DNA from: Candidatus Thorarchaeota archaeon
GTDB lineage: Archaea > Asgardarchaeota > Thorarchaeia > Thorarchaeales > Thorarchaeaceae
NCBI GenBank assembly: GCA_003345595.1
Contig: PRDI01000106.1
Location: forward strand, 1 to 14,785
Length of the DNA stretch: 14,785 nt
Reading direction: 5' to 3'
In this document: positions 1 through 14,785 of the stretch, piece by piece
Layout: every line of letters starts with the position of its first letter
Position numbering within the stretch: the stretch's first letter is position 1
The notes under the pieces: generated by a model
Database searches by the model: none
What the model was told of the DNA's origin: nothing
The model's input: the letters and a program-made list of their open reading frames with translations, nothing else
Made by a program: the position numbers and the translations under genes

Positions 1-10
1 CCCTGTACGA

Positions 11-277
11 GTGGGAATAGCATGGCAGGATTCTGCTATGATGCAGGTAGGCAAGTCCGGGATTACTGATGGAATTGTCGGCGAAACGAAACGACTACTG
101 AAGAAACACCGATACATGAAGGTGAGACTCCTGCATAGCTCCGTTGGAGAAGAGGACTCCAAGCGGGGCGTATTTGAGATGCTATGTGAGCGTACTGGTG
201 CTCGACTCGTTGGGATCAGGGGTAACACGGCGGTCATTTTCAAACCCCGTTCAAAGGCGAAGAGCAAGAGCGATTGA
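11..277 (+). CDS. YhbY/CRM-domain RNA-binding protein (probably 5'-truncated by the window edge; frame is open back to base 2)
   Basis: QVGKSGITDGIVGE..RLLKKHRYMKVRLL and LVGIRGNTAVIFK match the YhbY pattern; this gene typically precedes rps19e in archaea. Confidence 0.85.
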   Translation: MGIAWQDSAMMQVGKSGITDGIVGETKRLLKKHRYMKVRLLHSSVGEEDSKRGVFEMLCERTGARLVGIRGNTAVIFKPRSKAKSKSD

Positions 278-334
278 TGTGGACTGTGTGCGTGTACTAC
301 GGCGAGCAGAGGCCCGTAAGATGTGGGTTTATGG

Positions 335-348
335 TAATGCTTTTATGG
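335..348 (+). promoter_or_regulatory. Putative BRE/TATA promoter for the rps19e operon
   Basis: AT-rich TTTTATGG at 341-348 in the yhbY-rps19e spacer. Confidence 0.45.
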
Positions 349-441
349 GGTCACTAAGTTGGGGTCCCAGCCTTCTGAGGTAGGCAATCCGCCTAGTCCG
401 GGTGCGGTAGCCGTTTCCCAGATTGATGTGGTGACAGACTC

Positions 442-894
442 ATGCCCACTGTGTACGATATACCCGCGAACATCCTGATCCGTCGTCTTGCACAGGAACT
501 CAGGTCTCGAAAGGACATCCAACCCCCTGATTGGGCCCCATTTGTGAAGACGGGGGTACACAAGGACAGGGCACCTGATGATCCAGACTGGTGGTATGTC
601 AGATGCGCAAGTGTCCTCAGGAAGATCTACATGAAAGGGCCGATTGGAACTGAGAGACTGAGAATCGACTATGGTGGAAGAATAGGACGCGGTGACAAGC
701 CCCCCAGGGAGAGAAGAGGAGGAGGAGCGATAGTCAGACTCTCACTTCAGCAGCTCGAGCGGGCAGGTTTCATCAGGAAACGCGGCAACAAGGGCAGAGA
801 AATGACAGACATCGGCAGGTCGTACATGGATAAGCTCTCAGGTTCTCTGAAGGGTGAACTGACAAAAGCGATTCCAGGTCTTGAGAAGTACTAG
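442..894 (+). CDS. rps19e: 30S ribosomal protein S19e
   Basis: MPTVYDIP, PPDWAPFVKTGVHKDRAPDDPDWWYVRCASVLRKIY, LQQLERAG motifs; SD-like GGTGA upstream. Confidence 0.98.
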   Translation: MPTVYDIPANILIRRLAQELRSRKDIQPPDWAPFVKTGVHKDRAPDDPDWWYVRCASVLRKIYMKGPIGTERLRIDYGGRIGRGDKPPRERRGGGAIVRLSLQQLERAGFIRKRGNKGREMTDIGRSYMDKLSGSLKGELTKAIPGLEKY

Positions 895-910
895 TCAAGG
901 ACTGATATCG

Positions 911-1243
911 ATGAGTGATGATGAGGAACTCGATGCAATCCGCCAGAAGAAACTCGCCGCTATGAGAGATCAGGCGGTCCAAGAGCGGATTCAAGAGCAG
1001 CAGATGGAAGAGGCTGAGGCCAGAAAGGAAGCCATCCTGCGCCAGATTCTCACTCCGGAGGCTCGATCACGACTGGCCAATATCAAGATGGTCAAGCCCC
1101 AGTTCGCGCAACAGATTGAGATGCAGCTGATTCAGCTTGCAGGTTCTGGAAAACTCAAAGGACAGGTGACAGATGAACAGCTCAGGATGCTGCTTCAGCA
1201 GATTCAAGGGCGTGAAAGAGAGAGAAAGGTCACGTTCAGGTAG
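911..1243 (+). CDS. PDCD5-family DNA-binding protein
   Basis: [43 protein letters not shown]; conserved position after rps19e; ATG 911 preferred over TTG 881. Confidence 0.95.
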
Positions 1244-1266
1244 AACTGCTGCATGAGGTGAAATGC

Positions 1267-1422
1267 ATGGCAAGAAACAAGCCACTCGGAAAGAAACTCA
1301 GGCTGGCAAAGGAATTGAGTAGCAACAGCAGTGTGCCAACTTGGGTAGTGATGAAAACAGGCGGGAAGGTCAGAAGGACACCAGCGCAGCGACACTGGCG
1401 TGATGCAAAGATCAAGGCCTAG
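1267..1422 (+). CDS. rpl39e: 50S ribosomal protein L39e (51 aa, not in the ORF track)
   Basis: Manual translation [51 protein letters not shown]; SD GAGGTGA upstream. Confidence 0.97.
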
Positions 1423-1436
1423 TCAGGTGAGTATTG

Positions 1437-1820
1437 ATGACTGAACAAGAGAAGACAGAGCAGAAAGCCTCAGAGGAAGTCGTGGAGGCCAAGACGGGCG
1501 AAGCGGCTCCATCCGTTGAGAAGGAAGCCGCAGCACCGGCTGAGGCAGCGCCCGAGGAGGAGATTGTTGATGAGAGGATCTATACCGTTCCGCTTCGAAG
1601 AGTCTTCTGGACTGGCAACCGCCGCAAGAGAGCAAACAGAGCTGTCAGAACTCTCAGGGAATTCGTAAGCAGACACATGAAGCCAGAGCAGCTGCTGATA
1701 CAGCCCGAGGTCAATGAACGCCTATGGGCCCATGGCATTCAGAACCCCCCAAGGAAGCTGAGGATCAGGGCGACGAAGAACTCTGAGAATCTAGTGCGAG
1801 TGTATCTTGCGGAGGGATAG
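1437..1820 (+). CDS. rpl31e: 50S ribosomal protein L31e with acidic N-terminal extension
   Basis: ERIYTVPLR, RANRAVRTLREFVSRHMK, VNERLWAHGIQNPPRKLRIR; SD AGGTGA. Confidence 0.97.
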   Translation: MTEQEKTEQKASEEVVEAKTGEAAPSVEKEAAAPAEAAPEEEIVDERIYTVPLRRVFWTGNRRKRANRAVRTLREFVSRHMKPEQLLIQPEVNERLWAHGIQNPPRKLRIRATKNSENLVRVYLAEG

Positions 1821-1826
1821 CCCTCT

Positions 1827-2492
1827 GTGATCGCCCGTACAGACTTTGAGGGCGATTCGAACGTCGGGGCCTTTGGAATCGCCACTGACAGGTTCGTGTT
1901 CGTTTCCATGAACATGTCAGAGAAGTCACTTCAGACAATCGAACGCACATTCGATTTGCCGTTGGTACAGTCGACGGTGGCAACACTTGATGCTGTGGGA
2001 ATAATGTCGATTGCAAACTCAAATGGACTCTTAGTACCATACACCGTGAATGATGATGAGCTACTCCGACTCAAACGGTTCGAGGATATCAGAGTTGACT
2101 GGGTTGATAGCAAGATGACCGCCTTGGGCAACATAGTCATCGCAAACGACAGCGGGGCGATCTGTCATCCGGACTTTGATGCTAAGGCGCGGCAGAAGAT
2201 ATCTGACACCTTGGGAGTGGAGGTCGTACCGGGAACGGTTGCACGACTACCTATCGTTGGAGCAAATACGGTTGCCACCAGCAGAGGCGCCGTCGTCCAT
2301 CCTCTGTCTACGAGTGAGGAAATCCAGCAGATAGCGCAGCTGTTAAAAGTGGAAGTGGAAGTCGGCACTGTCAACAGAGGAAGCCCATATACTAGACTCG
2401 GAGTATTGGCCAACCGAAACGGGATGATAGCTGGAACTGACACCACGGGTGTCGAACTGGCGCACATCAGCCAGGTACTTGGATTTGTGTAG
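1827..2492 (+). CDS. eif6: Translation initiation factor 6 (aIF6)
   Basis: DSNVGAFG, ANSNGLLVP, TALGNIVIAND, GTVNRGSPY, TTGVEL; GTG start. Confidence 0.97.
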   Translation: MIARTDFEGDSNVGAFGIATDRFVFVSMNMSEKSLQTIERTFDLPLVQSTVATLDAVGIMSIANSNGLLVPYTVNDDELLRLKRFEDIRVDWVDSKMTALGNIVIANDSGAICHPDFDAKARQKISDTLGVEVVPGTVARLPIVGANTVATSRGAVVHPLSTSEEIQQIAQLLKVEVEVGTVNRGSPYTRLGVLANRNGMIAGTDTTGVELAHISQVLGFV

Positions 2493-2506
2493 TGAGGTGT
2501 TCGTTG

Positions 2507-2749
2507 ATGGACACAAAGGTCTGGTTAGTCACTGGAGTGTACAAGAAGAATAGACGACTATTCAGCTTCCACAAGGAGCTGATAGCTCTGAAGGAGTCCC
2601 ATGTTAGGGAGAGGATCTTGTCGGACCTCGGAAGTCGGCATAATCTCAAGAGAAGAGACATACAGATATCTGAAATCAAGGAGATCAGACCCAACGAGGT
2701 TGTGAGTCTAGACCTGAGAAGACGCCTTGGTGTGGAGAGCGGTCAGTGA
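2507..2749 (+). CDS. rplX: 50S ribosomal protein L18a/LX (eL20)
   Basis: FHKELIALKESHVRERILSDLGSRHNLKRRDIQISEIKEI; SD GAGGTG before ATG 2507; conserved position. Confidence 0.95.
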   Translation: MDTKVWLVTGVYKKNRRLFSFHKELIALKESHVRERILSDLGSRHNLKRRDIQISEIKEIRPNEVVSLDLRRRLGVESGQ

Positions 2750-3174
2750 TGACTGAGGACCAGCAGAAACTCTTGCAGAAACTGTATGCCCAACAGAAAG
2801 CCACCGAGTCTGGCATAGAGATCGTTCAGGAACGCATGGAACTGGTCCAAGCGAGCCTGAACAGCCATAGGAGAGGTCTGGGAGTCCTCCAGGAATTTGA
2901 GGGAAAGAAGGAGGGCGAAAAGATGCTGATTAATGTGGGCGGAAATCTATTCATTGATGTACAGCTCGCAAGCCCAGACAGAGTCACGAGAGACATCGGC
3001 AGTGGCGTGAGAGTAATACAGAAGCTTGAAGACGCCAAGAAGAGCGTCGAGGAAACCATTGCATCCCTCGAACAACACTATGCACAGCTCGCTCAGCAGA
3101 ACGAAACCATATCCAATCAGGCGGCAGATATTGGCAGGCGCCTCAACGATCTAGTGAAGCAGATGCAGGGTTAG
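2749..3174 (+). CDS. pfdA: Prefoldin alpha subunit
   Basis: Coiled coils flanking MLINVGGNLFI / VTRDIGSGV hairpins; TGATG overlap with rplX; conserved position before ftsY. Confidence 0.93.
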   Translation: MTEDQQKLLQKLYAQQKATESGIEIVQERMELVQASLNSHRRGLGVLQEFEGKKEGEKMLINVGGNLFIDVQLASPDRVTRDIGSGVRVIQKLEDAKKSVEETIASLEQHYAQLAQQNETISNQAADIGRRLNDLVKQMQG

Positions 3175-3187
3175 GGGGAGCAGACGA

Positions 3188-4099
3188 TTGTTTGAGAGGC
3201 TCCGTGGGGCCCTAGATGCTGCATTGACCAAGACAGTGACAAAGGAGTTGAGTGAGAAAAACCTCTCTGAAGCGGTATGGCAACTCCAGCTTGTACTGAT
3301 TCAAAATGATGTCGCAGTAGAGGCGGCTGAACACATCTGCGAGCTCACCAAGAAGAGACTGATTGGAACAAGAGCTGGTCGCCTCGAGAGCGTTAGCAAA
3401 CGATTCAGGAATGCTATCTACGAGTCAATCCTTGAGATTCTCACTCCAGAACACCCATTGGATCCTCTTCAGTTCGCCTCAGAGAGAAGGAGTAAGGGCG
3501 AACTGACGACAATCATGTTTGTCGGAGTGAACGGAACAGGAAAGACTACGACGCTGGCAAAGGTGGCACACCTCTTCAAGAAGAACGGGTTCTCCATTGT
3601 GATAGCTGCCAGCGACACATTTCGTGCAGGCAGTATAGAACAGATAGAGCTGCACGCACAAAAACTTGGTGTGAAAATCATTAAACAGGATTATGGTGCT
3701 GATGCTGCGGCCATCGCGTTTGATGCAGTAGCCCACGCGAAGGCCAAGCACATTGATATTGTACTTGTAGACACAGCTGGGAGGATGCAGAGCAACAAGA
3801 ACTTGCTCGCAGAGATGGCCAAGATTGCTAGGGTCGCAGAGCCAGACCTCAAGCTGTTTGTCGGCGATGCTCTTGCAGGCAATGATGCCCTATCACAGGC
3901 CAGAGAGTTCAATGACGCCATCGGAATTGATGGAGCGATACTCACCAAAATCGATGCCGATCCATCAGGTGGAGCAGCCCTGTCCATTGCATACGTGACG
4001 GGCCGACCAGTGGTCTACGTGGGCACAGGACAAGGCTATGACGACCTGCAACGATTCGACCCCCAGTGGTTTGCCCGAAGGCTTTTGGGAGAATCGTGA
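3188..4099 (+). CDS. ftsY: Signal recognition particle receptor FtsY (NG domain only)
   Basis: GVNGTGKTTT, DTFRAG, DTAGRM, TKID, GTGQGYDDL; TTG start after GGGGAG. Confidence 0.98.
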   Translation: MFERLRGALDAALTKTVTKELSEKNLSEAVWQLQLVLIQNDVAVEAAEHICELTKKRLIGTRAGRLESVSKRFRNAIYESILEILTPEHPLDPLQFASERRSKGELTTIMFVGVNGTGKTTTLAKVAHLFKKNGFSIVIAASDTFRAGSIEQIELHAQKLGVKIIKQDYGADAAAIAFDAVAHAKAKHIDIVLVDTAGRMQSNKNLLAEMAKIARVAEPDLKLFVGDALAGNDALSQAREFNDAIGIDGAILTKIDADPSGGAALSIAYVTGRPVVYVGTGQGYDDLQRFDPQWFARRLLGES

Positions 4100-4104
4100 C
4101 CAGT

Positions 4105-4118
4105 GGACAGTTTTATTA
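4105..4118 (+). promoter_or_regulatory. Possible TATA box for argF
   Basis: TTTTATTA at 4111-4118, ~50 nt before the argF start. Confidence 0.35.
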
Positions 4119-4167
4119 CATGGTGCCTACGAAGCCGCCCTTGACATCTTTCTCAAAGGTGATGAGG

Positions 4168-5091
4168 ATGAGTCTGAAAGGCCGGGACTTCATTGACCTT
4201 GCTGATTTCGAGAGGCAGGAACTCAGGACAATACTGGATACGGCGTATGATCTCAAGCGGAAGCAGAAACGTGGAGAGCCACATGAGTTGCTCAAGGGAA
4301 AATCGCTTGCTATGATATTCATGAAGTCATCCACACGCACGAGAGTCTCCTTCGAGGTGGGAATGACACAACTGGGGGGTCATGCACTCTACCTCGAACA
4401 GACCGGAATGCAACTCGCCCGTGGAGAAACGATTGCTGATACAGCGAAAGTTCTGTGCAGATACTGTGATGTAATCATGGCGCGGGTGTTCGCACACAGC
4501 GACCTCACTGACTTGGCAAAGTACTCCTCAGTGCCTGTGGTCAACGGTCTCTCCGACACATCGCATCCCTGTCAAATCATGGCTGACATGATGACTATCG
4601 AAGAGCACAAGGGAGAGCTCAAGGGACTCAAGATAGCCTACGTCGGCGACTCGAACAACGTGAGCAACTCCATCATGGATGGGTGCACCATAATGGGAAT
4701 GGATGTCACCATTGGCTCGCCGAAAGGATACATTCCGACTGCAGAGGTCTTGAAGAGGACATCTGAGCTGAGCCAGAGGTATGGAACGACAATTGAGGTC
4801 AAGAACAACCCCCTCAAAGCGGTTGAAGGGGCCGATGTGATATACACTGACACTTTCTTTAGCATGGGACAGGAGAGAACGAAGGAGAAAGAAGCCGCTC
4901 TCATGCCCTTTCAGGTGAACAAGACACTTGTCGATGCAGCCAAACGCGATGTGATTGTCATGCACTGCTTGCCAGCACATCGCGACGAGGAGATTGTCAG
5001 CGAAATCATGGACGGGCCACATTCAGTGGTGTATGACCAAGCTGAGAACCGTCTACACGCACAGAAGGCCATACTTGCTCTCATAGTCTGA
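4168..5091 (+). CDS. argF: Ornithine carbamoyltransferase
   Basis: SSTRTRVSFE, HPCQ, SMG, HCLP, DQAENRLHAQKA; SD AGGTGA supports ATG 4168. Confidence 0.97.
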   Translation: MSLKGRDFIDLADFERQELRTILDTAYDLKRKQKRGEPHELLKGKSLAMIFMKSSTRTRVSFEVGMTQLGGHALYLEQTGMQLARGETIADTAKVLCRYCDVIMARVFAHSDLTDLAKYSSVPVVNGLSDTSHPCQIMADMMTIEEHKGELKGLKIAYVGDSNNVSNSIMDGCTIMGMDVTIGSPKGYIPTAEVLKRTSELSQRYGTTIEVKNNPLKAVEGADVIYTDTFFSMGQERTKEKEAALMPFQVNKTLVDAAKRDVIVMHCLPAHRDEEIVSEIMDGPHSVVYDQAENRLHAQKAILALIV

Positions 5092-5103
5092 GAGGCGTGG
5101 AAA

Positions 5104-6075
5104 TTGTCCCTCGAGGTAGTTGCCATAGGTGGCGCCAATATCGATCTGATACTCAGGGTGGATAAGATCCCAGCTCAGGGCGAACACGTCATCTGTCAGC
5201 ATGGCCATCTGTCGTTTGGAGGCTCTGCTGCGAACTTTGCCACGCAGTCGGCACGGCTAGGGGTCAAGACAGGTCTGATTAGCTGCATAGGCAATGACAT
5301 TCACGGTCAGACATACCTGAGAGAGCTCTCTCGAGTTGGGGTCGATACTCATTCGGTAGCTGTCCTTGAGAACCAACCAACAGGCATCTTTGTTATCGTG
5401 ACAGATTCTCAAGACCAAAGAATTGTCATGGTGGAGCCGGGTGCGAACAGGTTCTTGGAGAAACACTTGCTTGATGAAGAATATGTCAGTCGAGCTAGGA
5501 CAGTGCATGTGGCTGGCGGCTTTCCGATGGCTACGGATAGAGCCATAGAGATAGCCACTACCGAGGGAATGATACTCTCCATAGACCCCGGTAAGGCAGC
5601 CGACTCGCTCAACTATCCTGCAATCCTGCGTTCTGTCGACTTGCTGTTTGTGAATGAACAAGAACTTCAGCACTACTTCAGAGTGGAGCCCTCAGAGAGT
5701 GCCCTGAAAGGGTTTGCAAAGTCGATACCTGGCATCATCATTGTGAAGAGAGGAAAGGAAGGGGCTGTCGCCACGGACGGGTTCGAGTTCTGTTCGTCAC
5801 AGTCTTTTGATGTCCCTGTTGTGGACACAACTGGCGCAGGCGACGCATTTGCAGCAGGTTTTGTGACAGCATGGACTAGATCTGAGAAGATAGAGCAGGC
5901 GCTTCACATGGCCAATGCGACAGCAGCGCTGAAAATCACGAAACAGGGAGCGCAGAGTGGGCAGCCGACCCTCGATGAGGCGTTTAGGCTGCTCAACAAG
6001 ACTGGGATATCCATTGACCCCGTGCTTAGGACCTTCAGGACGGACAGGCAGAAAACAGGCAGACAGAAGCGGTAG
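5104..6075 (+). CDS. PfkB/ribokinase-family carbohydrate or nucleoside kinase
   Basis: GGSAANFA..ARLG, NEQE, DTTGAGDAFAAG signature motifs. Confidence 0.95.
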   Translation: MSLEVVAIGGANIDLILRVDKIPAQGEHVICQHGHLSFGGSAANFATQSARLGVKTGLISCIGNDIHGQTYLRELSRVGVDTHSVAVLENQPTGIFVIVTDSQDQRIVMVEPGANRFLEKHLLDEEYVSRARTVHVAGGFPMATDRAIEIATTEGMILSIDPGKAADSLNYPAILRSVDLLFVNEQELQHYFRVEPSESALKGFAKSIPGIIIVKRGKEGAVATDGFEFCSSQSFDVPVVDTTGAGDAFAAGFVTAWTRSEKIEQALHMANATAALKITKQGAQSGQPTLDEAFRLLNKTGISIDPVLRTFRTDRQKTGRQKR

Positions 6076-6084
6076 CACCCGAGT

Positions 6085-6114
6085 AATACCGGGGGAGTAT
6101 TCCACTTTTTGTTT
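6085..6114 (+). terminator. Possible terminator (small hairpin plus T-tract) after pfkB
   Basis: AATAC...GTATT inverted repeat followed by CTTTTTGTTT. Confidence 0.35.
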
Positions 6115-6158
6115 ACACGATATCTGCGTATGAGCAGAAGACAGAAGGTGTTTGAGAG

Positions 6159-7289
6159 TTGCATCCATTGCTAGAGGAAGCACTAAGCGGAACTACTTCA
6201 AGACGCGAAGCACAGCCGAAGACATCCAAGCGGGTCACAAAGGGGGCCATTACAGATGATGAATTGGCCGCCATTCTAGAGTCTGTAACGGCTAAGATAC
6301 TCGTTGTGGGCATTGGGGGAGCAGGCAACAATGCTGTTACACGCCTAATGGAAGTCGGCGTCGAAGGGGCAGAAACCCTCGCCATCAACACAGATGCCCA
6401 AGACCTGTACTACTGCAATTCACATCACAAGCTATTGCTTGGCAGAGAAACGTGTGGAGGCCTTGGGGCAGGGAATAATCCGGATATTGGTGAGAAGGCA
6501 GCTCTCGAAACCTATGACCAGATCAAGGATTCTGTCAAAGCGGACCTCGTGTTCATAGCAGCCGGCATGGGTGGTGGAACCGGCACCGGTGCCGCCGCCC
6601 ATGTTGCGAGAGCCGCTAAAGAGAACGGAGCACTGACGGTTGCGATAGTCTGCCTGCCCTTCGAAGTGGAGGGAGCGACCAGAAAGAAGAACGCCATGAG
6701 GGGCCTCAGGGCGCTGATGGAGCATGTGGACACTCTGATAGCGATTCCAAATGAAAAGCTTCTAGAGATTGCACCAGACCTCTCTCTACCTGAAGCCTTC
6801 ATGGTCGCTGACGAAGTGCTAGTACGTGCGGTCAAAGGCATTGCGGAACTCATATCGCGGCCGGGTCTCGTCAACTTAGACTTCGCCGATGTACGTACCA
6901 CCATGAAGAACGGTGGTGTGTCGATTATCGCCTTGGGCGAGGGCCAAGGCGAGAACAGAGCAGAAGAAGCTGTCAACAACGCGCTTCGAAACCCGCTCAT
7001 CGACATCTCAATAGAGAATGCACACAACCTGCTCATCAACGTAAGCGGGAGCACTGATCTCCAGCTTAGAGAGGCAAAGCGCGTTGTGGAGCTCGTGACT
7101 GAACAGGTAAACCCCGGCGCCGAGATCATCTATGGAGCAATTATCATGCCAGAGCTTGAAGACCGACTCCGGGTGACAATAATCGCCTCGGGCGTAAACT
7201 CGCCGTACATATTCGACTCCGACTCAGCCCGAGGCACGTCCCTCGCGGATGACCTGAAGAGAGACCTCGGACTCTCGCGACTTGGCTAG
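6159..7289 (+). CDS. ftsZ: Cell division protein FtsZ (FtsZ1-type by synteny with secE-spt5)
   Basis: GIGGAGNNAV, GLGAGNNP, GMGGGTGTGAA tubulin signature, PFEVEG, NLDFADV T7 loop; TTG start after AAGGTG. Confidence 0.98.
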   Translation: MHPLLEEALSGTTSRREAQPKTSKRVTKGAITDDELAAILESVTAKILVVGIGGAGNNAVTRLMEVGVEGAETLAINTDAQDLYYCNSHHKLLLGRETCGGLGAGNNPDIGEKAALETYDQIKDSVKADLVFIAAGMGGGTGTGAAAHVARAAKENGALTVAIVCLPFEVEGATRKKNAMRGLRALMEHVDTLIAIPNEKLLEIAPDLSLPEAFMVADEVLVRAVKGIAELISRPGLVNLDFADVRTTMKNGGVSIIALGEGQGENRAEEAVNNALRNPLIDISIENAHNLLINVSGSTDLQLREAKRVVELVTEQVNPGAEIIYGAIIMPELEDRLRVTIIASGVNSPYIFDSDSARGTSLADDLKRDLGLSRLG

Positions 7290-7308
7290 TGTGTGGTTGG
7301 GCACTCAG

Positions 7309-7321
7309 CAAGGGTTAAAAG
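7309..7321 (+). promoter_or_regulatory. Putative BRE/TATA promoter for secE-spt5
   Basis: CAAGGGTTAAAA: purine-rich BRE followed by TTAAAA. Confidence 0.5.
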
Positions 7322-7384
7322 ACCACCGCCCGTGAGTCCCACTGTTTCCGGTGAACACTGAACACCCCAGGATGTGTGACAGGA

Positions 7385-7567
7385 ATGGGTGTCGGAGAAT
7401 TCCTCAGAGAGAGCAAGCGTATCTTGAAACTTGCCACAAAACCAACACGAGGCGAGATGTGGTCAAGCACAAAGATCAGTCTGCTCGCAATGGTACTTGT
7501 CGGACTGCTCAGCTTCATAATTCAGGTCCTGATGGTAGCCCTGACAGCAGGATGGACTGGAACTTAA
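7385..7567 (+). CDS. secE: Protein translocase subunit SecE/Sec61-gamma
   Basis: EFLRESKRILKLATKPTRGEMW followed by one TM helix (VGLLSFIIQ); located between ftsZ and spt5; start 7385 or 7376. Confidence 0.95.
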   Translation: MGVGEFLRESKRILKLATKPTRGEMWSSTKISLLAMVLVGLLSFIIQVLMVALTAGWTGT

Positions 7568-7606
7568 AGGGCCGTCCCTGCCAAGACCAGCAAAGGAGGG
7601 TTCCAC

Positions 7607-8278
7607 TTGCAGGCGAAGACCAGCATCTATGCCATAAGAACAACAATAAGTCAAGAGAGGTCAGTTGCAGACCTGATTACGACTGCAGTTACGGGAGAAA
7701 CTGATCTGTGGGAATGCCCTTTCTGCGGCGAGCAGTTCTCATCCCAAGAGAGCACGATCAAGCACATGAGAGATTGCCAGAAGGCGGGTAAGAAGAAGGG
7801 CGAGCCCAAGCTGGTATCTAAGAACCAACTTCTGGGTCGGGTCATGGCAATACTCGTTCCAGAAACACTCCGAGGTTATGTGTTTCTCGAAACCACTGAA
7901 TTCAGGGATGTCGAGATTGCGATTTCTGGTGTGCCACATGTGCGGGGCCGTGTTAGCGGAAAAGTGAGCCTAGAAGAAATCGACAAATTCCTTGCTCCAC
8001 CCCCTGCGGCCGAAGGTATATCGACAGGTGATGTTGTCGAGATCATATCGGGTCCATTCAAGGGCGAGAGAGCCAGAGTGTCAAGAGTGGACACTTCCAA
8101 AGAGGAACTCATACTCGAACTGCTCGACAGCCCGCACACCATCCCCTTGCGAGTACATGCCGATTTTGCCAAGATTGTTGAGAAAGGGAAGGCAGCCGAG
8201 AAGAAAGAAGAAGAGAAGAGAGAAGAGGCTGAAAGTCAGGGTCCCGAGGAGGAAGAGGACTCATTCTGGTCTCATTGA
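7607..8278 (+). CDS. spt5: Transcription elongation factor Spt5/NusG with inserted zinc finger and acidic tail
   Basis: NGN: IYAIRTTISQERSVA...ILVPETLRGYVFLE; KOW: GDVVEIISGPFKGERARV; SD GGAGG, TTG start. Confidence 0.96.
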   Translation: MQAKTSIYAIRTTISQERSVADLITTAVTGETDLWECPFCGEQFSSQESTIKHMRDCQKAGKKKGEPKLVSKNQLLGRVMAILVPETLRGYVFLETTEFRDVEIAISGVPHVRGRVSGKVSLEEIDKFLAPPPAAEGISTGDVVEIISGPFKGERARVSRVDTSKEELILELLDSPHTIPLRVHADFAKIVEKGKAAEKKEEEKREEAESQGPEEEEDSFWSH

Positions 8279-8340
8279 ACGCCCCGCTATCATCGACTAC
8301 TAATCCGTTCACTTGGCTACTTTGACTTGCGGCTTGGTCG

Positions 8341-8353
8341 CAAGCCTTAAAAA
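8341..8353 (+). promoter_or_regulatory. Putative promoter for rpl11-rpl1-rpl10-rpl12
   Basis: CAAGCCTTAAAAA, resembling the CAAGGGTTAAAA element before secE. Confidence 0.5.
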
Positions 8354-8364
8354 CGGACTATCAG

Positions 8365-8533
8365 GTCGGGAGCCTTACTCCTTAATCGGACACAGGCGCA
8401 TTGACGTCGTGTCAGGGGTGATAACAGATGGCTAAGAATGCAGTAGACCTTGCTGGATATCCTTCTTCTTGTGTCTGGCGGGTCGACCTTGCTGACGCGT
8501 CGTTGACGCATCAGTTGCACTGCATCAGGAGTT
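8365..8533 (+). promoter_or_regulatory. Candidate structured leader of the rpl11 operon
   Basis: Several complementary arms read by eye (ATGCAGT/ACTGCAT, GCGTC/GACGC, GCCT/AGGC). Confidence 0.4.
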
Positions 8534-8550
8534 GTGATTCATTTGAGTGA
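8428..8550 (+). CDS. Putative 40-aa leader uORF overlapping the rpl11 start
   Basis: Strong SD GGGGTGA then ATG; MAKNAVDLAGYPSSCVWRVDLADASLTHQLHCIRSCDSFE*; no recognised homology. Confidence 0.3.
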   Translation: MAKNAVDLAGYPSSCVWRVDLADASLTHQLHCIRSCDSFE

Positions 8551-9046
8551 ACAGAAGACCAAAGTGTCCACCATGGTCGAGGGCGGCAAGGCCTCGGGAG
8601 GACCACCAATCGGACCAGCCCTAGGACCGACCGGTGTGAACGTGTTTCAGGTAGTACAGAAGATCAATGAAGTCACACAGCCCTTTGCAGGACTGAAGGT
8701 TCCTGTGACAATAATCGTTGACACAGTCACCAAATCATTTGAGGTGCAGGTGGGTGTCCCACCAACTAGCGCACTGATCCTCAAGGAAATAGGCGCCCCA
8801 AAGGGGTCTGCGACACCGAAGACTCAGATTGTGGGCAATCTTTCGATTGACCAGATCAAGTCCATTGCCAAGGCAAAGGCCGCAGACTTGACTGCGTTGA
8901 CAATGAAGTCGGCTGCAATGATAATCACGGGCACGTGCGTATCGATGGGTGTGACCATCGAGGGCAAACCCGCCAAGGAGTTCCAACAAGAAATCAGAGA
9001 TGGCAAGTGGGACAACCAGCTCAACGTCCCCTTCAGGGAGGCGTGA
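8534..9046 (+). CDS. rpl11: 50S ribosomal protein L11 (uL11); start GTG 8534 or TTG 8543
   Basis: VEGGKASGGPPIGPALGPTGVN, VGVPPTSALI, GTCVSMGV. Confidence 0.98.
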   Translation: MIHLSEQKTKVSTMVEGGKASGGPPIGPALGPTGVNVFQVVQKINEVTQPFAGLKVPVTIIVDTVTKSFEVQVGVPPTSALILKEIGAPKGSATPKTQIVGNLSIDQIKSIAKAKAADLTALTMKSAAMIITGTCVSMGVTIEGKPAKEFQQEIRDGKWDNQLNVPFREA

Positions 9047-9049
9047 GAG

Positions 9050-9706
9050 ATGCCATTCAGCACTGAAAGAATCGAAGCAGCCGTAGCTGAGGCTAGAGCT
9101 AAGGGCATGGAGAAGGGTGTCAAGTTCGAGCAAAGCTTTGACATTGCAGTGAACTTCAGGAGAAAGGAGATGGACACCTCAAAGCCCGAGAACAGGTTGA
9201 ATCAGGAGGTAACGATACCTTATGCTCTGTATCCCCCTGCCAAGGTCTGTGCATTTGGCGATGGCGAGTTTGCAGAAAAGGCCAACGCTGCAGGTGCCGA
9301 GCGAGTAGTCCCAAAGGATGAAATCCCAAAGATGGGTGAGGCAAAGGCCACTAAGAGATCCTTGGCCAAGACATATGATTTCTTCATCGCATCGACTGAC
9401 ACGATGCCGCTAGTGGGCCGCTATCTCGGTCAAGCCTTGGGTACAAGGGGTAAGATGCCGAAACCATACCCTCCTCAGGCAGACCTCAAGGCGGTAGTCG
9501 GCCAGTATCGTCGGACTGTGCGAGTGAGGATGAAGAACACCCCCACCTTCCACGTGAAGGTCGGTCACGTCAAGATGGGTGATAAAGAGATAGCAGAAAA
9601 CATAGCCGCTGTGCTCCGCTTCGTCGAGAGCAAAGGGCATGCGGGCAAGGTGAGCAGCGTGATTGTCAAAACAACAATGGGCCCACCCGTCCAGATAGGC
9701 GAGTAA
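9050..9706 (+). CDS. rpl1: 50S ribosomal protein L1 (uL1)
   Basis: FEQSFDIAVNF, MPLVGRYLGQALGTRGKMP, VKTTMGPP. Confidence 0.98.
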   Translation: MPFSTERIEAAVAEARAKGMEKGVKFEQSFDIAVNFRRKEMDTSKPENRLNQEVTIPYALYPPAKVCAFGDGEFAEKANAAGAERVVPKDEIPKMGEAKATKRSLAKTYDFFIASTDTMPLVGRYLGQALGTRGKMPKPYPPQADLKAVVGQYRRTVRVRMKNTPTFHVKVGHVKMGDKEIAENIAAVLRFVESKGHAGKVSSVIVKTTMGPPVQIGE

Positions 9707-9719
9707 GGAGTTGAAGCCG

Positions 9720-10736
9720 ATGGCAGCATCCGAGCATGTCGTACCGCAATGGAAGAGGGACGAGGTTGATCATCTGATTTCGATGATCAAGAAGAGCAAG
9801 ATGGTAGGTCTTGTTGACGTAGGTGGTGTTGGAGCCAAGCAGTTACAAGGTATCAGGGACAGCCTGCGAGGCTCTGCCGTCTTGCGGATGGCTCGCAACA
9901 CTCTTATGATCAGGGCAATAGAGAACTCAAAGGTCAAGGGCATTGATGATCTTTCAGGACATGTCATTGGACCTGTTGCGCTGATTTTCAGCGACCAGGA
10001 CCCATTCTCACTCAGCAAGTTCCTACGCGAGAACAAGACAAAGGCCCCGGCCAAGGGAGGGCAGGTGGCACCAAATGACATCGTAGTTCCCGCAATGAAT
10101 ACTGGCGTGGCACCGGGACCCTTCATCAGCGAGCTAGCGGCATTGAAGATCCCTGCCCGTGTGAAGACAGGTGTTATACACATTACGGATGACACGGTCG
10201 TAGCTAAGACAGGAGAGGTCATATCAAATGCATTAGCGCAGATGCTTGGGAGACTTGGTATTGAGCCAATGGAACTCCAGCTGAAGCTCGTGGCGGTATA
10301 CACGGACGGCGCAGTGTTCACTTCCGACGCGTTTGAGGTCGACTTGAAGGGACTGCTTGAGGAAGTCGTCCTAGGGCATCAGCTCGCCGTGAACCTGTCA
10401 GTCAATATCTGCTATCCGACAGCAGACACGATTGCGATGATAATCACGAGGGCGGACCTGGACGCCAAGACCTTGGCCATCAATGTCGGGTTTTTTGTGC
10501 CAGAGATGGTGAGACAGTTCTTGGTAAAGGCAGACTCAGAGGCTCTTGCTCTGGCTGCTGTGCTCTCAGGAAGGAACCCGGAAGCGGTGTCACCAGAGAT
10601 TCTGGCTAGATTCCGGACTCCTGTGGCAGTTGCAGCGACCGCACCTGCTGTCAGCGCCTCCAAGAAGAAGAAACCTGAGAAGGAGGAGGAGAAGAAGGAG
10701 GAAGGAGCACCGAGCATTGGAAGTCTGTTTGGATGA
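9720..10736 (+). CDS. rpl10: 50S ribosomal protein L10/P0 (uL10)
   Basis: PQWKRDEV, QLQGIRDSLRG, RNTL, APAKGGQVAPNDIVVPAMNTG..PGP, C-terminal GSLFG; SD TAAGGAG favours ATG 9720. Confidence 0.97.
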   Translation: MAASEHVVPQWKRDEVDHLISMIKKSKMVGLVDVGGVGAKQLQGIRDSLRGSAVLRMARNTLMIRAIENSKVKGIDDLSGHVIGPVALIFSDQDPFSLSKFLRENKTKAPAKGGQVAPNDIVVPAMNTGVAPGPFISELAALKIPARVKTGVIHITDDTVVAKTGEVISNALAQMLGRLGIEPMELQLKLVAVYTDGAVFTSDAFEVDLKGLLEEVVLGHQLAVNLSVNICYPTADTIAMIITRADLDAKTLAINVGFFVPEMVRQFLVKADSEALALAAVLSGRNPEAVSPEILARFRTPVAVAATAPAVSASKKKKPEKEEEKKEEGAPSIGSLFG

Positions 10737-10759
10737 GTGAAAAACCGAGGTAATGAAAC

Positions 10760-11071
10760 ATGGAATATGTATACTCTGCACTACTGCTCCACAAAGCAGG
10801 CCAAGCAATCAATGAGAAAAACATGGATGCTGTTCTCACCGCCGCAGGTGTGAAGGCCGACAAGAACAGAGTCAAGGCTCTGCTTGCAGCTCTTGAGGGT
10901 GTGAACATTGATGAGGCTCTGAAGAGCGTCGCCATGCCTGTGGCAGCCGCAAGTGCCGCTGCACCAGCAGCCGCTGCGGGAGCTCCTGCTGCTGCGGAGA
11001 AGAAGGAAGAGAAGAAAGAAGAGAAGAAAGAGGAAGAGTTCACTGCAGGCCTGGGGAGTCTCTTTGGCTAA
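10760..11071 (+). CDS. rpl12: 50S ribosomal stalk protein L12/P1 (aP1)
   Basis: [11 protein letters not shown], Ala-rich hinge, [15 protein letters not shown]; SD GAGGT. Confidence 0.98.
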
Positions 11072-11112
11072 GAGTGATCTCCGTATCCTCGCATTCCCTC
11101 TAGTGTCATCTG

Positions 11113-11160
11113 GGACAGGCAGGTCGCGAGCCTGTCTGTCCAAGTCTGTCTTTTACGTTT
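11113..11160 (+). terminator. Putative terminator after the ribosomal operon
   Basis: GACAGGC/GCCTGTC stem (11114-11136) followed by TCTTTTACGTTT. Confidence 0.45.
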
Positions 11161-11269
11161 CTCACATTGGTGTGTTCAGACACAAACGACCGTCAGGGCT
11201 GAGCATCTCACGCACCATGAAGACTACCTAGACGCATAGGTTCCAGATGTATTCAGGAGATGGCAATCC

Positions 11270-12052
11270 ATGAAGATAGTGTTCCATCCTCGCATGAGAG
11301 AGTCTTACGATAGTACGCCTGCTGGAGCACCTGGACGACTCAACACGGCAATCGCGTCATTCCAGAACAACCCTGACTACCAACTGATTATGCCAGACTA
11401 TGCGCCTGAGGAGGATCTCCTTCGTGCACATGAACAATGCGTATTGGAGAGAGCGAAGGCGGAGGATTCCTCATCGACCACCAAACACGTCTACGAGATG
11501 GCTGCACTAGCGGTGGGAGGCGCCATTCTCACGGCCAAACTCGCTGCAATGGGGGAACCGGCGTTTGGGTTGATTCGACCGCCAGGACACCATGCCTCTG
11601 CCAGAAGCTACTGGGGATTCTGCTATTTCAATAACATGGCTGTAGCCCTTCTGCATCTCCGCTCGAAACACCTCATCAAGTCCGCATTCATACTGGACTT
11701 CGACCTACATGTGGGAGATGGCACCATCGATATACTTGGTCGCGATAAGGACTTCCATATCTACAATCCACATGCACATGGAGATAGTAGCTACTTAGCA
11801 GACGTCAAGAATGCACTGGACGGCTGCCCCAGTGTGGACATGATAGCCGCATCGGCGGGATTCGACGAGTACGAACATTGTTGGGGACATAACCTCTCCA
11901 CGGAGGCATTCCGAAAGATAGGCCAGCTGATGAACGATTTCGCACAGAGTCAGTGTGATGGACGACGTTTCGGACTGCTTGAAGGAGGATACAACCATCA
12001 GGACCTAGGAAAGAATGTGTTGGCTTTCTGTGAGGGGCTACAGGGCAGGTAG
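11270..12052 (+). CDS. Histone deacetylase-family (Zn-dependent lysine/polyamine deacetylase-like) protein
   Basis: RPPGHHA, GFCYFNN, DFDLHVGDGT, AGFD, EGGY; SD AGGAG. Confidence 0.93.
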   Translation: MKIVFHPRMRESYDSTPAGAPGRLNTAIASFQNNPDYQLIMPDYAPEEDLLRAHEQCVLERAKAEDSSSTTKHVYEMAALAVGGAILTAKLAAMGEPAFGLIRPPGHHASARSYWGFCYFNNMAVALLHLRSKHLIKSAFILDFDLHVGDGTIDILGRDKDFHIYNPHAHGDSSYLADVKNALDGCPSVDMIAASAGFDEYEHCWGHNLSTEAFRKIGQLMNDFAQSQCDGRRFGLLEGGYNHQDLGKNVLAFCEGLQGR

Positions 12053-12113
12053 GCGGCGATTCGCCATTCAGGAGTTTATATTGAATGCAGACGACAGGCT
12101 GCTGGGATGACCG

Positions 12114-12365
12114 ATGCGATTCCTCCAGATTCTTAGTCCACTGACCAACTTCATACAGATGATTGCAGTCTATCTTGCTGAGATCTGGGATTTCCTGATC
12201 TTCATCGGCACAGCCTCGTCTGCGATTGTCGTGCTCGCAGGGGCGATACTCTGGCACACTGATGTGAATCAGACCAAAGGGAAGGCTCTCGTGCTCAGCG
12301 GCATAGTCCTCGCAGTCGTCATAGAGTACTTTGTCATCTTCCCACCGGACTTTGTTCTGAGCTAG
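12114..12365 (+). CDS. Small hydrophobic membrane protein, function unknown
   Basis: 83 aa with two hydrophobic helices joined by TDVNQTKGK; TATA-like TTTATATT at 12075-12082 upstream. Confidence 0.75.
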   Translation: MRFLQILSPLTNFIQMIAVYLAEIWDFLIFIGTASSAIVVLAGAILWHTDVNQTKGKALVLSGIVLAVVIEYFVIFPPDFVLS

Positions 12366-12485
12366 GTGCTCGGCCGAATCAGTCCAAGTGAGAGACTCCT
12401 TTGTTTCCCGCTTTGCACCGAAGTGTCTATAAGACGAGCCTCTCGCGAGTGTTTTTGCACCCTTCTTGTAAGAGGGGTCATGAGT

Positions 12486-12593
12486 GGGCCCGTTGCCCAG
12501 CCAGGACAGGGCGCTAGCCCTCTAGAGGTCATGCCAAATCGCAGGCCTGATAAAAGCTAGATGTCGCGCGTTCAAATCGCGCCGGGCCCGCCA
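12486..12593 (+). tRNA. tRNA-Arg(UCU) with 30-nt intron at 37/38 (12525-12554) and encoded CCA
   Basis: Acceptor GGGCCCG/CGGGCCC, discriminator G73, CCA; D arm GCCC/GGGC with A20; anticodon stem CTAGC/GCTAG; T arm GCGCG-TTCAAAT-CGCGC; intron helix AGGTC/GGCCT. Confidence 0.88.
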
Positions 12594-12660
12594 AAGCCTT
12601 CTCAATGCTCCATTTGCCGTTCGCTGCCCCAAGAATTGACTGATGTCGAAAGAAACGGTC

Positions 12661-14379
12661 CTATTCGAAAGACACGCATCTCTTGAGCCAGTCTGGCAGC
12701 ACCATAGAGAGACGTTCCTCGACTTGGCTCGTATTGTTCCATGGACCTGCACTCTTCATCCTTGCGGCTCTCTTGGCCCCAATTCCTGGAATGACTCTCC
12801 ACTGCGATAGGCTGGCGTGGTTGGCCAAGAATGGAAAAGGAAGAACGGTCAGTGATCTTGGGCCGTGATCCACAACGAACACGTTGCACGGAGATGGAAT
12901 GTTCTGACCCATAGGCATATGGCAAAGCAGAGGGTATGTACCGAGTTGACGCATCAGGTACAGGTTTCCTTCGCGCCCCTCGACGTATGTTGAACGGACC
13001 ACCGTTCCGTATGGGGCTACCCTCTTGATCATCACTTGGTCGATCTGTTGCCTGATTTCTTCCTTGTGTTGGATGAACTCGTTATGTTTCAGTCTGCCTT
13101 TTTCATCCGTGACTATCCGGGTATCCGGGAACCTGATGACCTGTCTTATGTTGATTCGCCTGACAATCAGTCCTTGGTCCAGCACTTCCTTCAGGAAGTC
13201 CATGTTGTACTGCATGGTCCTTTGGCTTTCGCCCGGCAGGCCATACAGAAGATTGATTCCCGGGAGCAGGTGTGGCAACTCCCATGGCGGCCTCTGACCT
13301 CCCACTTCGTTTAGGATTCTTATTGCTATCATGGCCTCTTCCGCGGTCACCTTGAGGTTGTTGCGTTTCTTTACCTCGGGATCTAGTGACTCTAGTCCAA
13401 ATGCGGCCACATCGCCCAGAGTGTGGTGCTTCATGATTGCACGGGTGACATCTTTGCTCTCTTCTGGATGCCTTGCAATTGTGCCCGGGTTGACATTGTC
13501 TATGTGAAGAACCTCAAGGTCTGGCGCAGCCATACGTATCTTGGAGAAGAGTAACTCGATGACATGTGGGGCAGGTGTGGGAAACTCGGTTTCCCCCATC
13601 TCCTTTGATCCATAAGTGAATAAGTCGGCCTGTCGTCCAATGCGGAAGGCCCTGACTCCGTGCTCATAGAGCGCCCCGACTTCTTTCGCTATGCCATCGG
13701 GCTCCCGTTGTGCAGGAGGACCATAGAGGGGTTCAACACAGAAGGAACAACCACCAGTGACGTATCGAGGACAGCCTCGATAGGTTTCGATTTCACATAT
13801 CATGTGCTTTTCTGAATGACCAGGATGCTGATTGACTATGGCACTCCCTCTGAGCGCATACTCTTCGACTTCCTGAGGCCCTGTCCTGACCTGATTGAGA
13901 TCAACGGACGAGAAGTCCCAGCCGTCTTGGGCGAGACCTGCAATCACTACTTCTGCATCCCCCCGAACGATGTAGTCGAAAGGTGGGGAGAGAACGTCCG
14001 AACTCAGTGCAAGCCTGCCCCCCGCAAGCCCACATCCGAAACGTGCCCATGGACCGACTAGGAGCTTTGGTGTGTCAACAAGAGCTTTGGTCGAGAAGAA
14101 CTGCTTGGCCTCCCTAACAGAGATTGGGGTGCCGCCCAGATACTTACCTGGCACGATCATGCCCGCAATGAGGATCAGTACCTGCGCACGCATCCAGACA
14201 GACCGGAGAGCTTCAACGTCGGCTCTGACTTGGTCGATAGTTTCGTAGATTACATCGGCGTGAGAATCGTGTGTCCAAATGGCTCCAGCGATGTATCGAG
14301 GATATGGGCTGACATAAGGCGGGACCCCGAGGCAAGTCGGTTCATCGACATATCCATCTACAATGACAACGCGAGTCAG
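12661..14379 (-). CDS. Archaeal radical SAM protein with C-terminal helix-hairpin-helix (COG1031-like); true start extended to CTG 14379
   Basis: Family N-terminus IVDGYVDEPTCLGVPPYVSPYPRYIAGA lies upstream of the track's ATG; IETYRGCPRYVTGGCSFC, LHIDNVNPG, GINLLYGLPGE, RRINIRQV, IPGIGAKRA HhH. Confidence 0.9.
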   Translation of the reverse strand: MTRVVIVDGYVDEPTCLGVPPYVSPYPRYIAGAIWTHDSHADVIYETIDQVRADVEALRSVWMRAQVLILIAGMIVPGKYLGGTPISVREAKQFFSTKALVDTPKLLVGPWARFGCGLAGGRLALSSDVLSPPFDYIVRGDAEVVIAGLAQDGWDFSSVDLNQVRTGPQEVEEYALRGSAIVNQHPGHSEKHMICEIETYRGCPRYVTGGCSFCVEPLYGPPAQREPDGIAKEVGALYEHGVRAFRIGRQADLFTYGSKEMGETEFPTPAPHVIELLFSKIRMAAPDLEVLHIDNVNPGTIARHPEESKDVTRAIMKHHTLGDVAAFGLESLDPEVKKRNNLKVTAEEAMIAIRILNEVGGQRPPWELPHLLPGINLLYGLPGESQRTMQYNMDFLKEVLDQGLIVRRINIRQVIRFPDTRIVTDEKGRLKHNEFIQHKEEIRQQIDQVMIKRVAPYGTVVRSTYVEGREGNLYLMRQLGTYPLLCHMPMGQNIPSPCNVFVVDHGPRSLTVLPFPFLANHASLSQWRVIPGIGAKRAARMKSAGPWNNTSQVEERLSMVLPDWLKRCVSFE

Positions 14380-14785
14380 CTAACTCCACTCCCTGAAGTC
14401 ATCATAGCCTACAGGGGGTATGACGACAGGTCCCTCAGGACTCTCCCACAGGACGCCATTGCCATCATGTGTGTGGCCAATGGGAATCAGCTCGGCATGG
14501 TTCTGTCGGGCTATTGACATGGCTTTGTCCCACTTATCTGCAGGAACTGTGAGAACGAGCGAGAACTCCTCACCTCCTTTCGCCACGACATCGAGGAGAT
14601 TGAAACCGTGTGATTCTGCAAACTCGGCAACACCTTCTGCCACAGGAAGATTGTCAATAATGAATGCGAGATTGCTCAGCGACGCTATCGTGTTAAGTGT
14701 GATTGCCAGACCATCGCTACTGTCCATGGTTGCTGTGACAGCCTTTGCCTGAGCGAGCGCTGGAACAAGGCGCAGGTTGATCTCC
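14380..14785 (-). CDS. thiL: Thiamine-monophosphate kinase, C-terminal part (5'-truncated by the window edge)
   Basis: MDSSDGL, GGEEFSLVLTV, terminal GYDDF motifs; frame open to the window end. Confidence 0.9.
   Translation of the reverse strand, partial: EINLRLVPALAQAKAVTATMDSSDGLAITLNTIASLSNLAFIIDNLPVAEGVAEFAESHGFNLLDVVAKGGEEFSLVLTVPADKWDKAMSIARQNHAELIPIGHTHDGNGVLWESPEGPVVIPPVGYDDFREWS

Follow-up and report, generated by a model that had tools for sequence, protein, structure and literature searches.

When the 14,785-nucleotide contig PRDI01000106.1 of a Candidatus Thorarchaeota archaeon (assembly GCA_003345595.1, positions 1 to 14,785 of the forward strand; hereafter the window) was analyzed, the gene for the elongation factor Spt5 was found to carry an insert with the pattern of a zinc finger inside its NGN domain. 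The gene order around spt5 is FtsZ, SecE, Spt5, L11, L1, L10/P0 and P1, with S19e, L31e, eIF6, prefoldin, FtsY and a PfkB kinase farther upstream. The Thorarchaeota gene order reported in PMC10833476 agrees with the arrangement of this cluster.

The gene encodes a Thorarchaeal Spt5. In Pfam, the Spt5-NGN family (PF03439) matched the product with 62.1 bits (cut-off 22.4) in two separate stretches, and KOW (PF00467) matched C-terminal to NGN with 31 bits (cut-off 22.3). An AlphaFold2 (AF2) model was built on an alignment of 126 sequences and had a mean predicted local distance difference test score (pLDDT) of 82.6. Searched with Foldseek, this model matched archaeal Spt5 structures at E = 2e-15, and its NGN domain alone could be superposed on 3lpe_A with a template modelling (TM) score of 0.89 and a root-mean-square deviation (rmsd) of 1.9 Å. 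The closest database proteins share 72-95 % identity, are 220-241 amino acids long and, where they are named, are mostly Thorarchaeota Spt5.

The first-pass annotation of the window, made from the sequence alone, had described an insert of about 40-45 amino acids with a C-x2-C-x12-H-x3-C motif after NGN helix 1, in the span 7694-7834 (Spt5 residues 30-76). This was confirmed. The insert lies in the loop that joins NGN helix 1 to strand 2, and the four candidate ligands of the motif C37-x2-C40-x12-H53-x3-C57 (C-x2-C-x3-F-x8-H-x3-C) are encoded by tgc at 7715-7717, tgc at 7724-7726, cac at 7763-7765 and tgc at 7775-7777. The motif is followed by QKAGKKKGEPK, and the NGN domain picks up again at RVMAILVPETLRGY. 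The length of the insert was gauged by counting from the QE that is conserved in helix 1 up to the GY in strand 3. This distance is 71 residues here and 69-72 residues in the other sequences of the same family (f1; see below). It is 27 residues in the 159-amino-acid Spt5 of the sister family of the same order (f2), and 25-28 residues in 15 further Asgard Spt5 proteins from 10 further families. Since insert-free Spt5 has 27 residues where this protein has 71, the insertion amounts to 44 amino acids, roughly from L34 to L75.

The insert is made up of a single C2HC finger of the beta-beta-alpha pattern, a linker that varies and is Lys-rich in most cases, and a return strand that is conserved (Table 1). 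This Spt5 has no Cys besides the three of the motif, and most insert-free Spt5 proteins have none at all.

Table 1 Features of the spt5 locus and of neighbouring genes in the window
Feature	Position (nt)	Spt5 residues	Strand	Basis or remark
Aspartate/ornithine carbamoyltransferase	4066-5091		+	
PfkB sugar kinase	5104-6075		+	
secE, upstream neighbour in the conserved cluster	7376-7567		+	Pfam SecE, E = 8.8e-9
GGAGG, Shine-Dalgarno-like	7595-7599		+	7 nt 5' of the spt5 TTG start; read from the sequence
spt5 open reading frame (ORF)	7607-8278	223 codons	+	Uninterrupted; TTG start
NGN N-terminal piece, strand 1 and helix 1 (QERSVADLITTAV)	7607-7705	1-33	+	AF2 strand 6-12, helix 17-30; split Pfam NGN match
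Finger core, predicted zinc ligands C37, C40, H53, C57	7706-7777	34-57	+	AF2; conservation; PDB profile match
Variable linker after the last ligand (QKAGKKKGE)	7778-7804	58-66	+	Lys-rich in most genera
Conserved return segment PKLVSKNQLLG	7805-7837	67-77	+	AF2 extra strand 68-71; leads into NGN strand 2
NGN C-terminal piece	7838-7996	78-130	+	Pfam best stretch 71-129; Foldseek 3lpe_A
KOW domain	8018-8182	about 138-192	+	Pfam 141-168; AF2 strands between 143 and 192
Acidic C-terminal tail ending DSFWSH (F220, W221), with stop	8183-8278	193-223	+	pLDDT 43-56
L11	8534-9046		+	Translation and cluster order of PMC10833476, without Pfam scan
L1	9050-9706		+	Translation and cluster order of PMC10833476, without Pfam scan
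L10/P0	3' of L1			Pfam
P1	3' of L10/P0			P1-like ORF
Histone-deacetylase-family gene	11270-12052		+	Pfam, E = 1e-36
Radical-SAM protein	12661-14193		-	

The motif C-x2-C-x12-H-x3-C was kept in 120 of 121 database homologues, the odd one having Tyr in place of His. An alignment of the insert (A2) was made from 60 sequences, the most divergent genera among them, with identity in the region falling to 40 %. In the numbering of this alignment C9, C12, F16 and C29 are invariant and H25 is found in 59 of 60 sequences, so that all three Cys ligands are fully conserved and the His nearly so. In Spt5 numbering the invariant positions are the three Cys ligands, F44, N73, L75 and G77-R78-V79. Conservation reaches 90 % or more at W35, P38, E42, S46, T50, H53 and M54, and likewise at P67, L69 and S71 in the return segment. 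A chance origin of the motif can be excluded because it holds the sole Cys residues of the protein and is kept in 120 of the 121 homologues and in all genera of the family.

When a profile of the insert was run against 400 Asgard genomes, it scored 82-118 bits in 83 of the 85 genomes of one Asgard family (f1, whose proteins are named Thorarchaeota by the sources), covering all of its 16 genera, and at most 24 bits anywhere else. The two misses in the family are technical; one genome has no Spt5 match of any kind and in the other the spt5 gene is cut by a contig end. In a library of 1.8 billion proteins, only two Thorarchaeal clusters carried the finger among the best 150 of 537 representatives. 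Thus, the insert is a conserved and family-specific module, and the earlier proposal of a lineage-specific accessory module on Spt5 holds. Its presence in all 16 genera, and not in the sister family or the rest of the phylum, makes it a derived character of one family. Most simply, it would have been gained once and then retained, and the conservation pattern fits a single acquisition followed by purifying selection. The profile found nothing but spt5 itself in the genome of this contig at E-values up to 1; thus there is no donor gene in this genome.

The first-pass annotation had also likened the insert, in spacing and fold, to a classical beta-beta-alpha finger that has Cys as its fourth ligand. 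The AF2 model agrees with this. The insert was predicted as a strand (34-36), a second strand (43-44) and a helix (47-56), followed by the extra short strand listed in Table 1, with a pLDDT of 86-90 (means of 10-residue blocks over residues 31-70). When the insert was folded by itself, the same elements were obtained with a mean pLDDT of 78. It is therefore predicted to be ordered both in the full-length protein and in isolation.

A profile search against the PDB also pointed to C2H2 fingers, with INSM1 (E = 4e-6), ZBTB17 (3.7e-5) and the archaeal-virus protein B-129 (3.9e-5) as matches. Structure searches with the isolated insert returned almost only C2H2 fingers (Foldseek; rmsd 1.1-2.0 Å over 27-30 residues). 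At the core positions, the aromatic W35 is found in 59 and F44 in all 60 of the aligned sequences, and helix position 4 is Thr in 57 of 60, not Leu. Two results leave the assignment less firm. Pfam zf-C2H2 scored 18-22 bits, under its gathering cut-off of 25.2, and the structure matches had no statistical significance (Foldseek E of at least 0.39; VIA Z of at most 3.6). Weak statistics of this kind are to be expected from structure searches with a domain of about 30 residues. Other Pfam results were likewise under threshold: zf-C2H2_4 matched 55 of the 60 insert sequences, always sub-threshold, and the single-sequence matches to zf-C2H2, zf-C2H2_4, zf-C2HC_2 and zf-MYST were all below the gathering scores. 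A feature search of the ESM Atlas, which contains no model of this Spt5, gave no usable match with residues 30-77. The sequence evidence for membership in the classical finger family is thus moderate. From this and the model, the insert would belong to the classical finger pattern in a C2HC form, with the four ligands probably binding one zinc ion. A CCHC zinc knuckle was considered and rejected, the knuckle spacing being C-x2-C-x4-H-x4-C and the spacing here C-x2-C-x12-H-x3-C.

We also examined the partner protein. A normal Spt4 with an intact CxxC...CxxC (Cys4) arrangement is kept in the genome, on another contig, where it adjoins an rpoE-like gene. When Spt5(1-135) was modelled with Spt4 and two zinc ions, the complex score was 0.79, compared with 0.09 for the best of three controls. 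The mark used for this score is reached by 58 of 80 solved complexes and by 2 of 110 mismatched pairs, and the pass obtained here may reflect solved Spt4/5 structures already known to the model, Spt4 and Spt5 being a textbook pair with solved relatives. The runs shared at least 91 % of their contacts and the pLDDT of the partner was at least 85. The confident Spt4 contacts in the model fall on helix 1 (18-29), residues 76-77, strand 2 (79-86), E95 and residues 122-129, which would be the canonical interface; strand 2, the LRGY turn and the invariant E95 all belong to the C-terminal piece of the NGN domain. Only the base of the insert (28-29 and 76-77) is among these modelled contacts. Residues 34-60 are not in the list, and as contacts they are uncertain rather than excluded. 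The first-pass annotation had suggested that the insert might alter Spt4 binding. This is not indicated, because Spt4 is kept and the modelled interface is canonical.

In the published complex of RNA polymerase with Spt4/5, Spt4 faces away from the polymerase, and a positively charged Spt4/5 surface lies along the path of upstream DNA and the non-template strand (PMC3094117). In Pol II complexes the upstream DNA is clamped by NGN and KOW1 (PMC10482750). The Thorarchaeal insert would emerge at one end of the Spt4-binding edge formed by helix 1 and strand 2. Since Spt4 is directed away from the polymerase, the finger should be solvent-exposed and, by analogy with these complexes, would face outward from the elongation complex, on the side of Spt4.

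Our preferred reading, to which we give a probability of about 0.4, is that the finger, together with the linker that is basic in most genera, adds a nucleic-acid backbone contact to the elongation complex. Such a contact would be made with upstream DNA or emerging RNA, would have no sequence specificity, and might loosely resemble the DNA clamp made with KOW1 in eukaryotic Spt5. The net charge of the linker is +3 to +7 in most genera. Contact of the finger with nucleic acid or chromatin would be plausible. However, several points argue to the contrary. The basic KAGKKKGEPK loop noted earlier is present in this sequence but is not a family-wide feature; the net charge of the linker ranges from +7 to -3, with values of 0 to +2 in several genera and -3 in genus g15, where the linker is acidic. 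The case for a nucleic-acid or chromatin contact is weakened by this lack of a basic loop in part of the genera. At the helix positions with which classical fingers read bases, the insert has Ser (-1), Glu or Lys (2), Ala or Ser (3) and Glu, Gln or Lys (6). With a single finger and these residues, base-specific DNA recognition is unlikely, and the acidic residues on the finger helix would not favour DNA. A single classical finger is usually a weak binder of nucleic acids. The conserved features of the insert are the finger surface and the return strand.

The constant finger surface bears on a second reading, which we hold as a tentative possibility. Here the exposed finger would be a protein-docking module that recruits a Thorarchaeota-specific partner or touches a polymerase subunit, perhaps together with the acidic C-terminal tail. 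Near-invariant surface residues that are not needed for the fold (D33, W35, E42, S46, T50 and M54) are consistent with docking, as are the mixed-charge, not basic, face of the finger helix and the constancy of the finger surface while the linker charge varies. Many single C2H2 or C2HC fingers bind proteins and not DNA. The finger and the tail are also co-distributed, both occurring in f1 and neither in its sister family f2. However, the partner is putative, and AF2 did not dock the tail on the finger (tail pLDDT 43-56). The confident Spt4 contacts include no finger residues, although residues outside that list are merely uncertain.

The tail itself was inspected in 60 sequences of the family, and an FW motif was found at or near the C-terminus in all of them. 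It was not found in the sister family or in the other Asgard Spt5 proteins inspected. Its family-wide form is [DE]-[SG]-F-W-[AS] (sequences L048-L059 and P0002-P0121), and it looks like a short linear binding motif. Mimicry of the ribosomal P-stalk by the tail was considered and rejected: P0 and P1 end in SLFG, unlike DSFWSH.

A third and less likely reading is that the insertion is purely structural, that is, a zinc-stapled loop at a permissive site which stiffens the helix 1/strand 2 junction and the Spt4-binding edge and has no ligand of its own. Three observations suit such a role: the helix 1/strand 2 loop is a hot spot of unrelated insertions in other archaeal Spt5 proteins (see below), the base of the insert touches Spt4 in the model, and the return segment is the most conserved part of the insert. 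However, many exposed finger residues are near-invariant over 16 genera while the linker drifts, which is unexpected for a neutral or structural insert.

A broader proposal is that the finger and the acidic FW tail originated at the same time, at the root of the Thorarchaeal family, and jointly provide the elongation complex with a recruitment platform. This platform would be an independent counterpart of the extra regions of eukaryotic Spt5 and would couple transcription to chromatin (histones) or RNA processing through a putative partner. We consider this unlikely.

The first-pass annotation had also named ubiquitin-like tags as a possible ligand, and a UBZ-type finger could read such tags on chromatin or polymerase. 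The C2HC ligand set is that of UBZ4 fingers, and weak matches were obtained to SLX4 (E = 0.05) and FAAP20 (E = 0.24) in the profile search and to the UBZ fingers of Rad18 and NDP52 (Z = 2.2) in the structure search. However, these are far weaker than the matches to ordinary C2H2 fingers. The E2 family PF00179 was found in none of the 85 genomes of f1, many of which are more than 90 % complete, and in 296 genomes of other Asgard families. Ubiquitin binding is disfavoured because of this distribution, and we regard it as very improbable. The ubiquitin family PF00240 had no match in the genome of this contig (83 % complete), but the control genomes were silent as well, so this result is uninformative alone. 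PF00179 was also absent from the single genome of each of the neighbouring families f2 and f3, and almost all other Asgard families sampled have it.

An artefact (a chimeric assembly, a frameshift in the reading, or a mobile element, for example an intein) was rejected as having practically no chance of being correct: the insert is in frame within one ORF, is found at an identical position in 83 genomes that were assembled independently and in hundreds of proteins from metagenomes, and has no paralogue in its own genome.

The remaining genes of the window were also inspected. A histone-deacetylase-family gene (260 amino acids) lies directly 3' of L11-L1-L10-P1, and beyond it a radical-SAM protein of 510 amino acids is encoded on the opposite strand. 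Between ftsY and ftsZ, the genes for an aspartate/ornithine carbamoyltransferase and a PfkB sugar kinase lie within a run of genes that otherwise serve translation. With the GTG at 4066 as its start, the carbamoyltransferase ORF would share about 30 nt with the end of ftsY.

A full-text literature search that left most subscription journals outside turned up no report of a zinc finger in the NGN domain of an archaeal Spt5, and the insert is confined to one family; as far as this search reached, the insertion is not a documented common feature of Spt5. A survey of elongation-factor domains in 218 Asgard proteomes does not report the finger (PMC13289920), and according to a review the NGN and KOW topologies closely resemble each other across all life, the KOW1 insertion being the exception (PMC7819879). 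A whole Asgard family has fixed a eukaryote-style, C2H2-type finger pattern inside the polymerase-binding NGN domain, beside the Spt4 interface. It means that, in archaea closely related to eukaryotes, accessory modules were added to the core elongation factor, and that this happened independently of the additions made in eukaryotes. The finger is a clear-cut sequence marker of the family. It also offers an experimental handle on the role of an added module at this NGN site in elongation, pausing and factor recruitment.

When the protein was compared with the canonical archaeal Spt5 of Methanocaldococcus jannaschii and Pyrococcus furiosus (3lpe, 3p8b and 4zn3), the NGN and KOW domains were found to be common to both. 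The predicted Spt4 interface (strand 2, helix 1 and a conserved Glu, E95 here) and the secE-spt5-L11 context are also the same. In contrast, the Thorarchaeal protein has 44 more residues with the C2HC finger and an acidic FW tail of roughly 30 residues, giving 223 amino acids versus about 147-159.

In other archaeal Spt5 proteins (P0138, P0156, P0124, P0147, P0222 and P0210), the same helix 1/strand 2 loop contains insertions of 50-150 residues that are unrelated in sequence to the Thorarchaeal finger. The insert of P0138 is KOW-like and may hold a second KOW motif, those of P0124, P0147, P0222 and P0210 are helical, and that of P0156 is about 150 amino acids long. In archaeal NGN domains, this loop seems to be a hot spot for insertions in general. 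P0208 (residues 108-125) and P0263 (residues 118-135) have a zinc-ribbon-like C-x2-C-x10-C-x2-C cluster. It is located after NGN strand 4, not in the helix 1/strand 2 loop, and is not of the C2HC type. Judged by the motifs of these Cys4 inserts, the NGN domain would have gained a putative zinc module a second time and independently. Neither the loop insertions of P0138 and the others nor the Cys4 clusters were found in Thorarchaeota.

The bacterial NusG proteins of Aquifex aeolicus (1m1g) and Thermotoga maritima (2xhc), both among the Foldseek matches, are a precedent for a lineage-specific domain within NGN. However, their domain II is much larger than the Thorarchaeal insert and has no zinc finger, and it belongs to a bacterial protein without an Spt4 partner. 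It presumably sits at another NGN loop than the Thorarchaeal finger.

The upstream-DNA clamp of eukaryotic Spt5 (DSIF), formed by NGN, the KOW1 insertion and Spt4, may be a functional analogue (PMC10482750; PMC3094117). However, the DSIF module is inserted in KOW1 and not in NGN, and it has no sequence or fold kinship with the Thorarchaeal finger.

Classical C2H2 fingers (the zf-C2H2 clan, with the INSM1 C2HC finger, the virus protein B-129 and AFV1p06) share the pattern aromatic-x-C-x2-C-x3-F-x8-H-x3-C with the insert, as well as the strand-strand-helix order of its predicted fold. Unlike them, the insert has Cys as the fourth ligand and Thr instead of Leu at helix position 4, and it stands as a lone finger inside another domain rather than in a tandem array.

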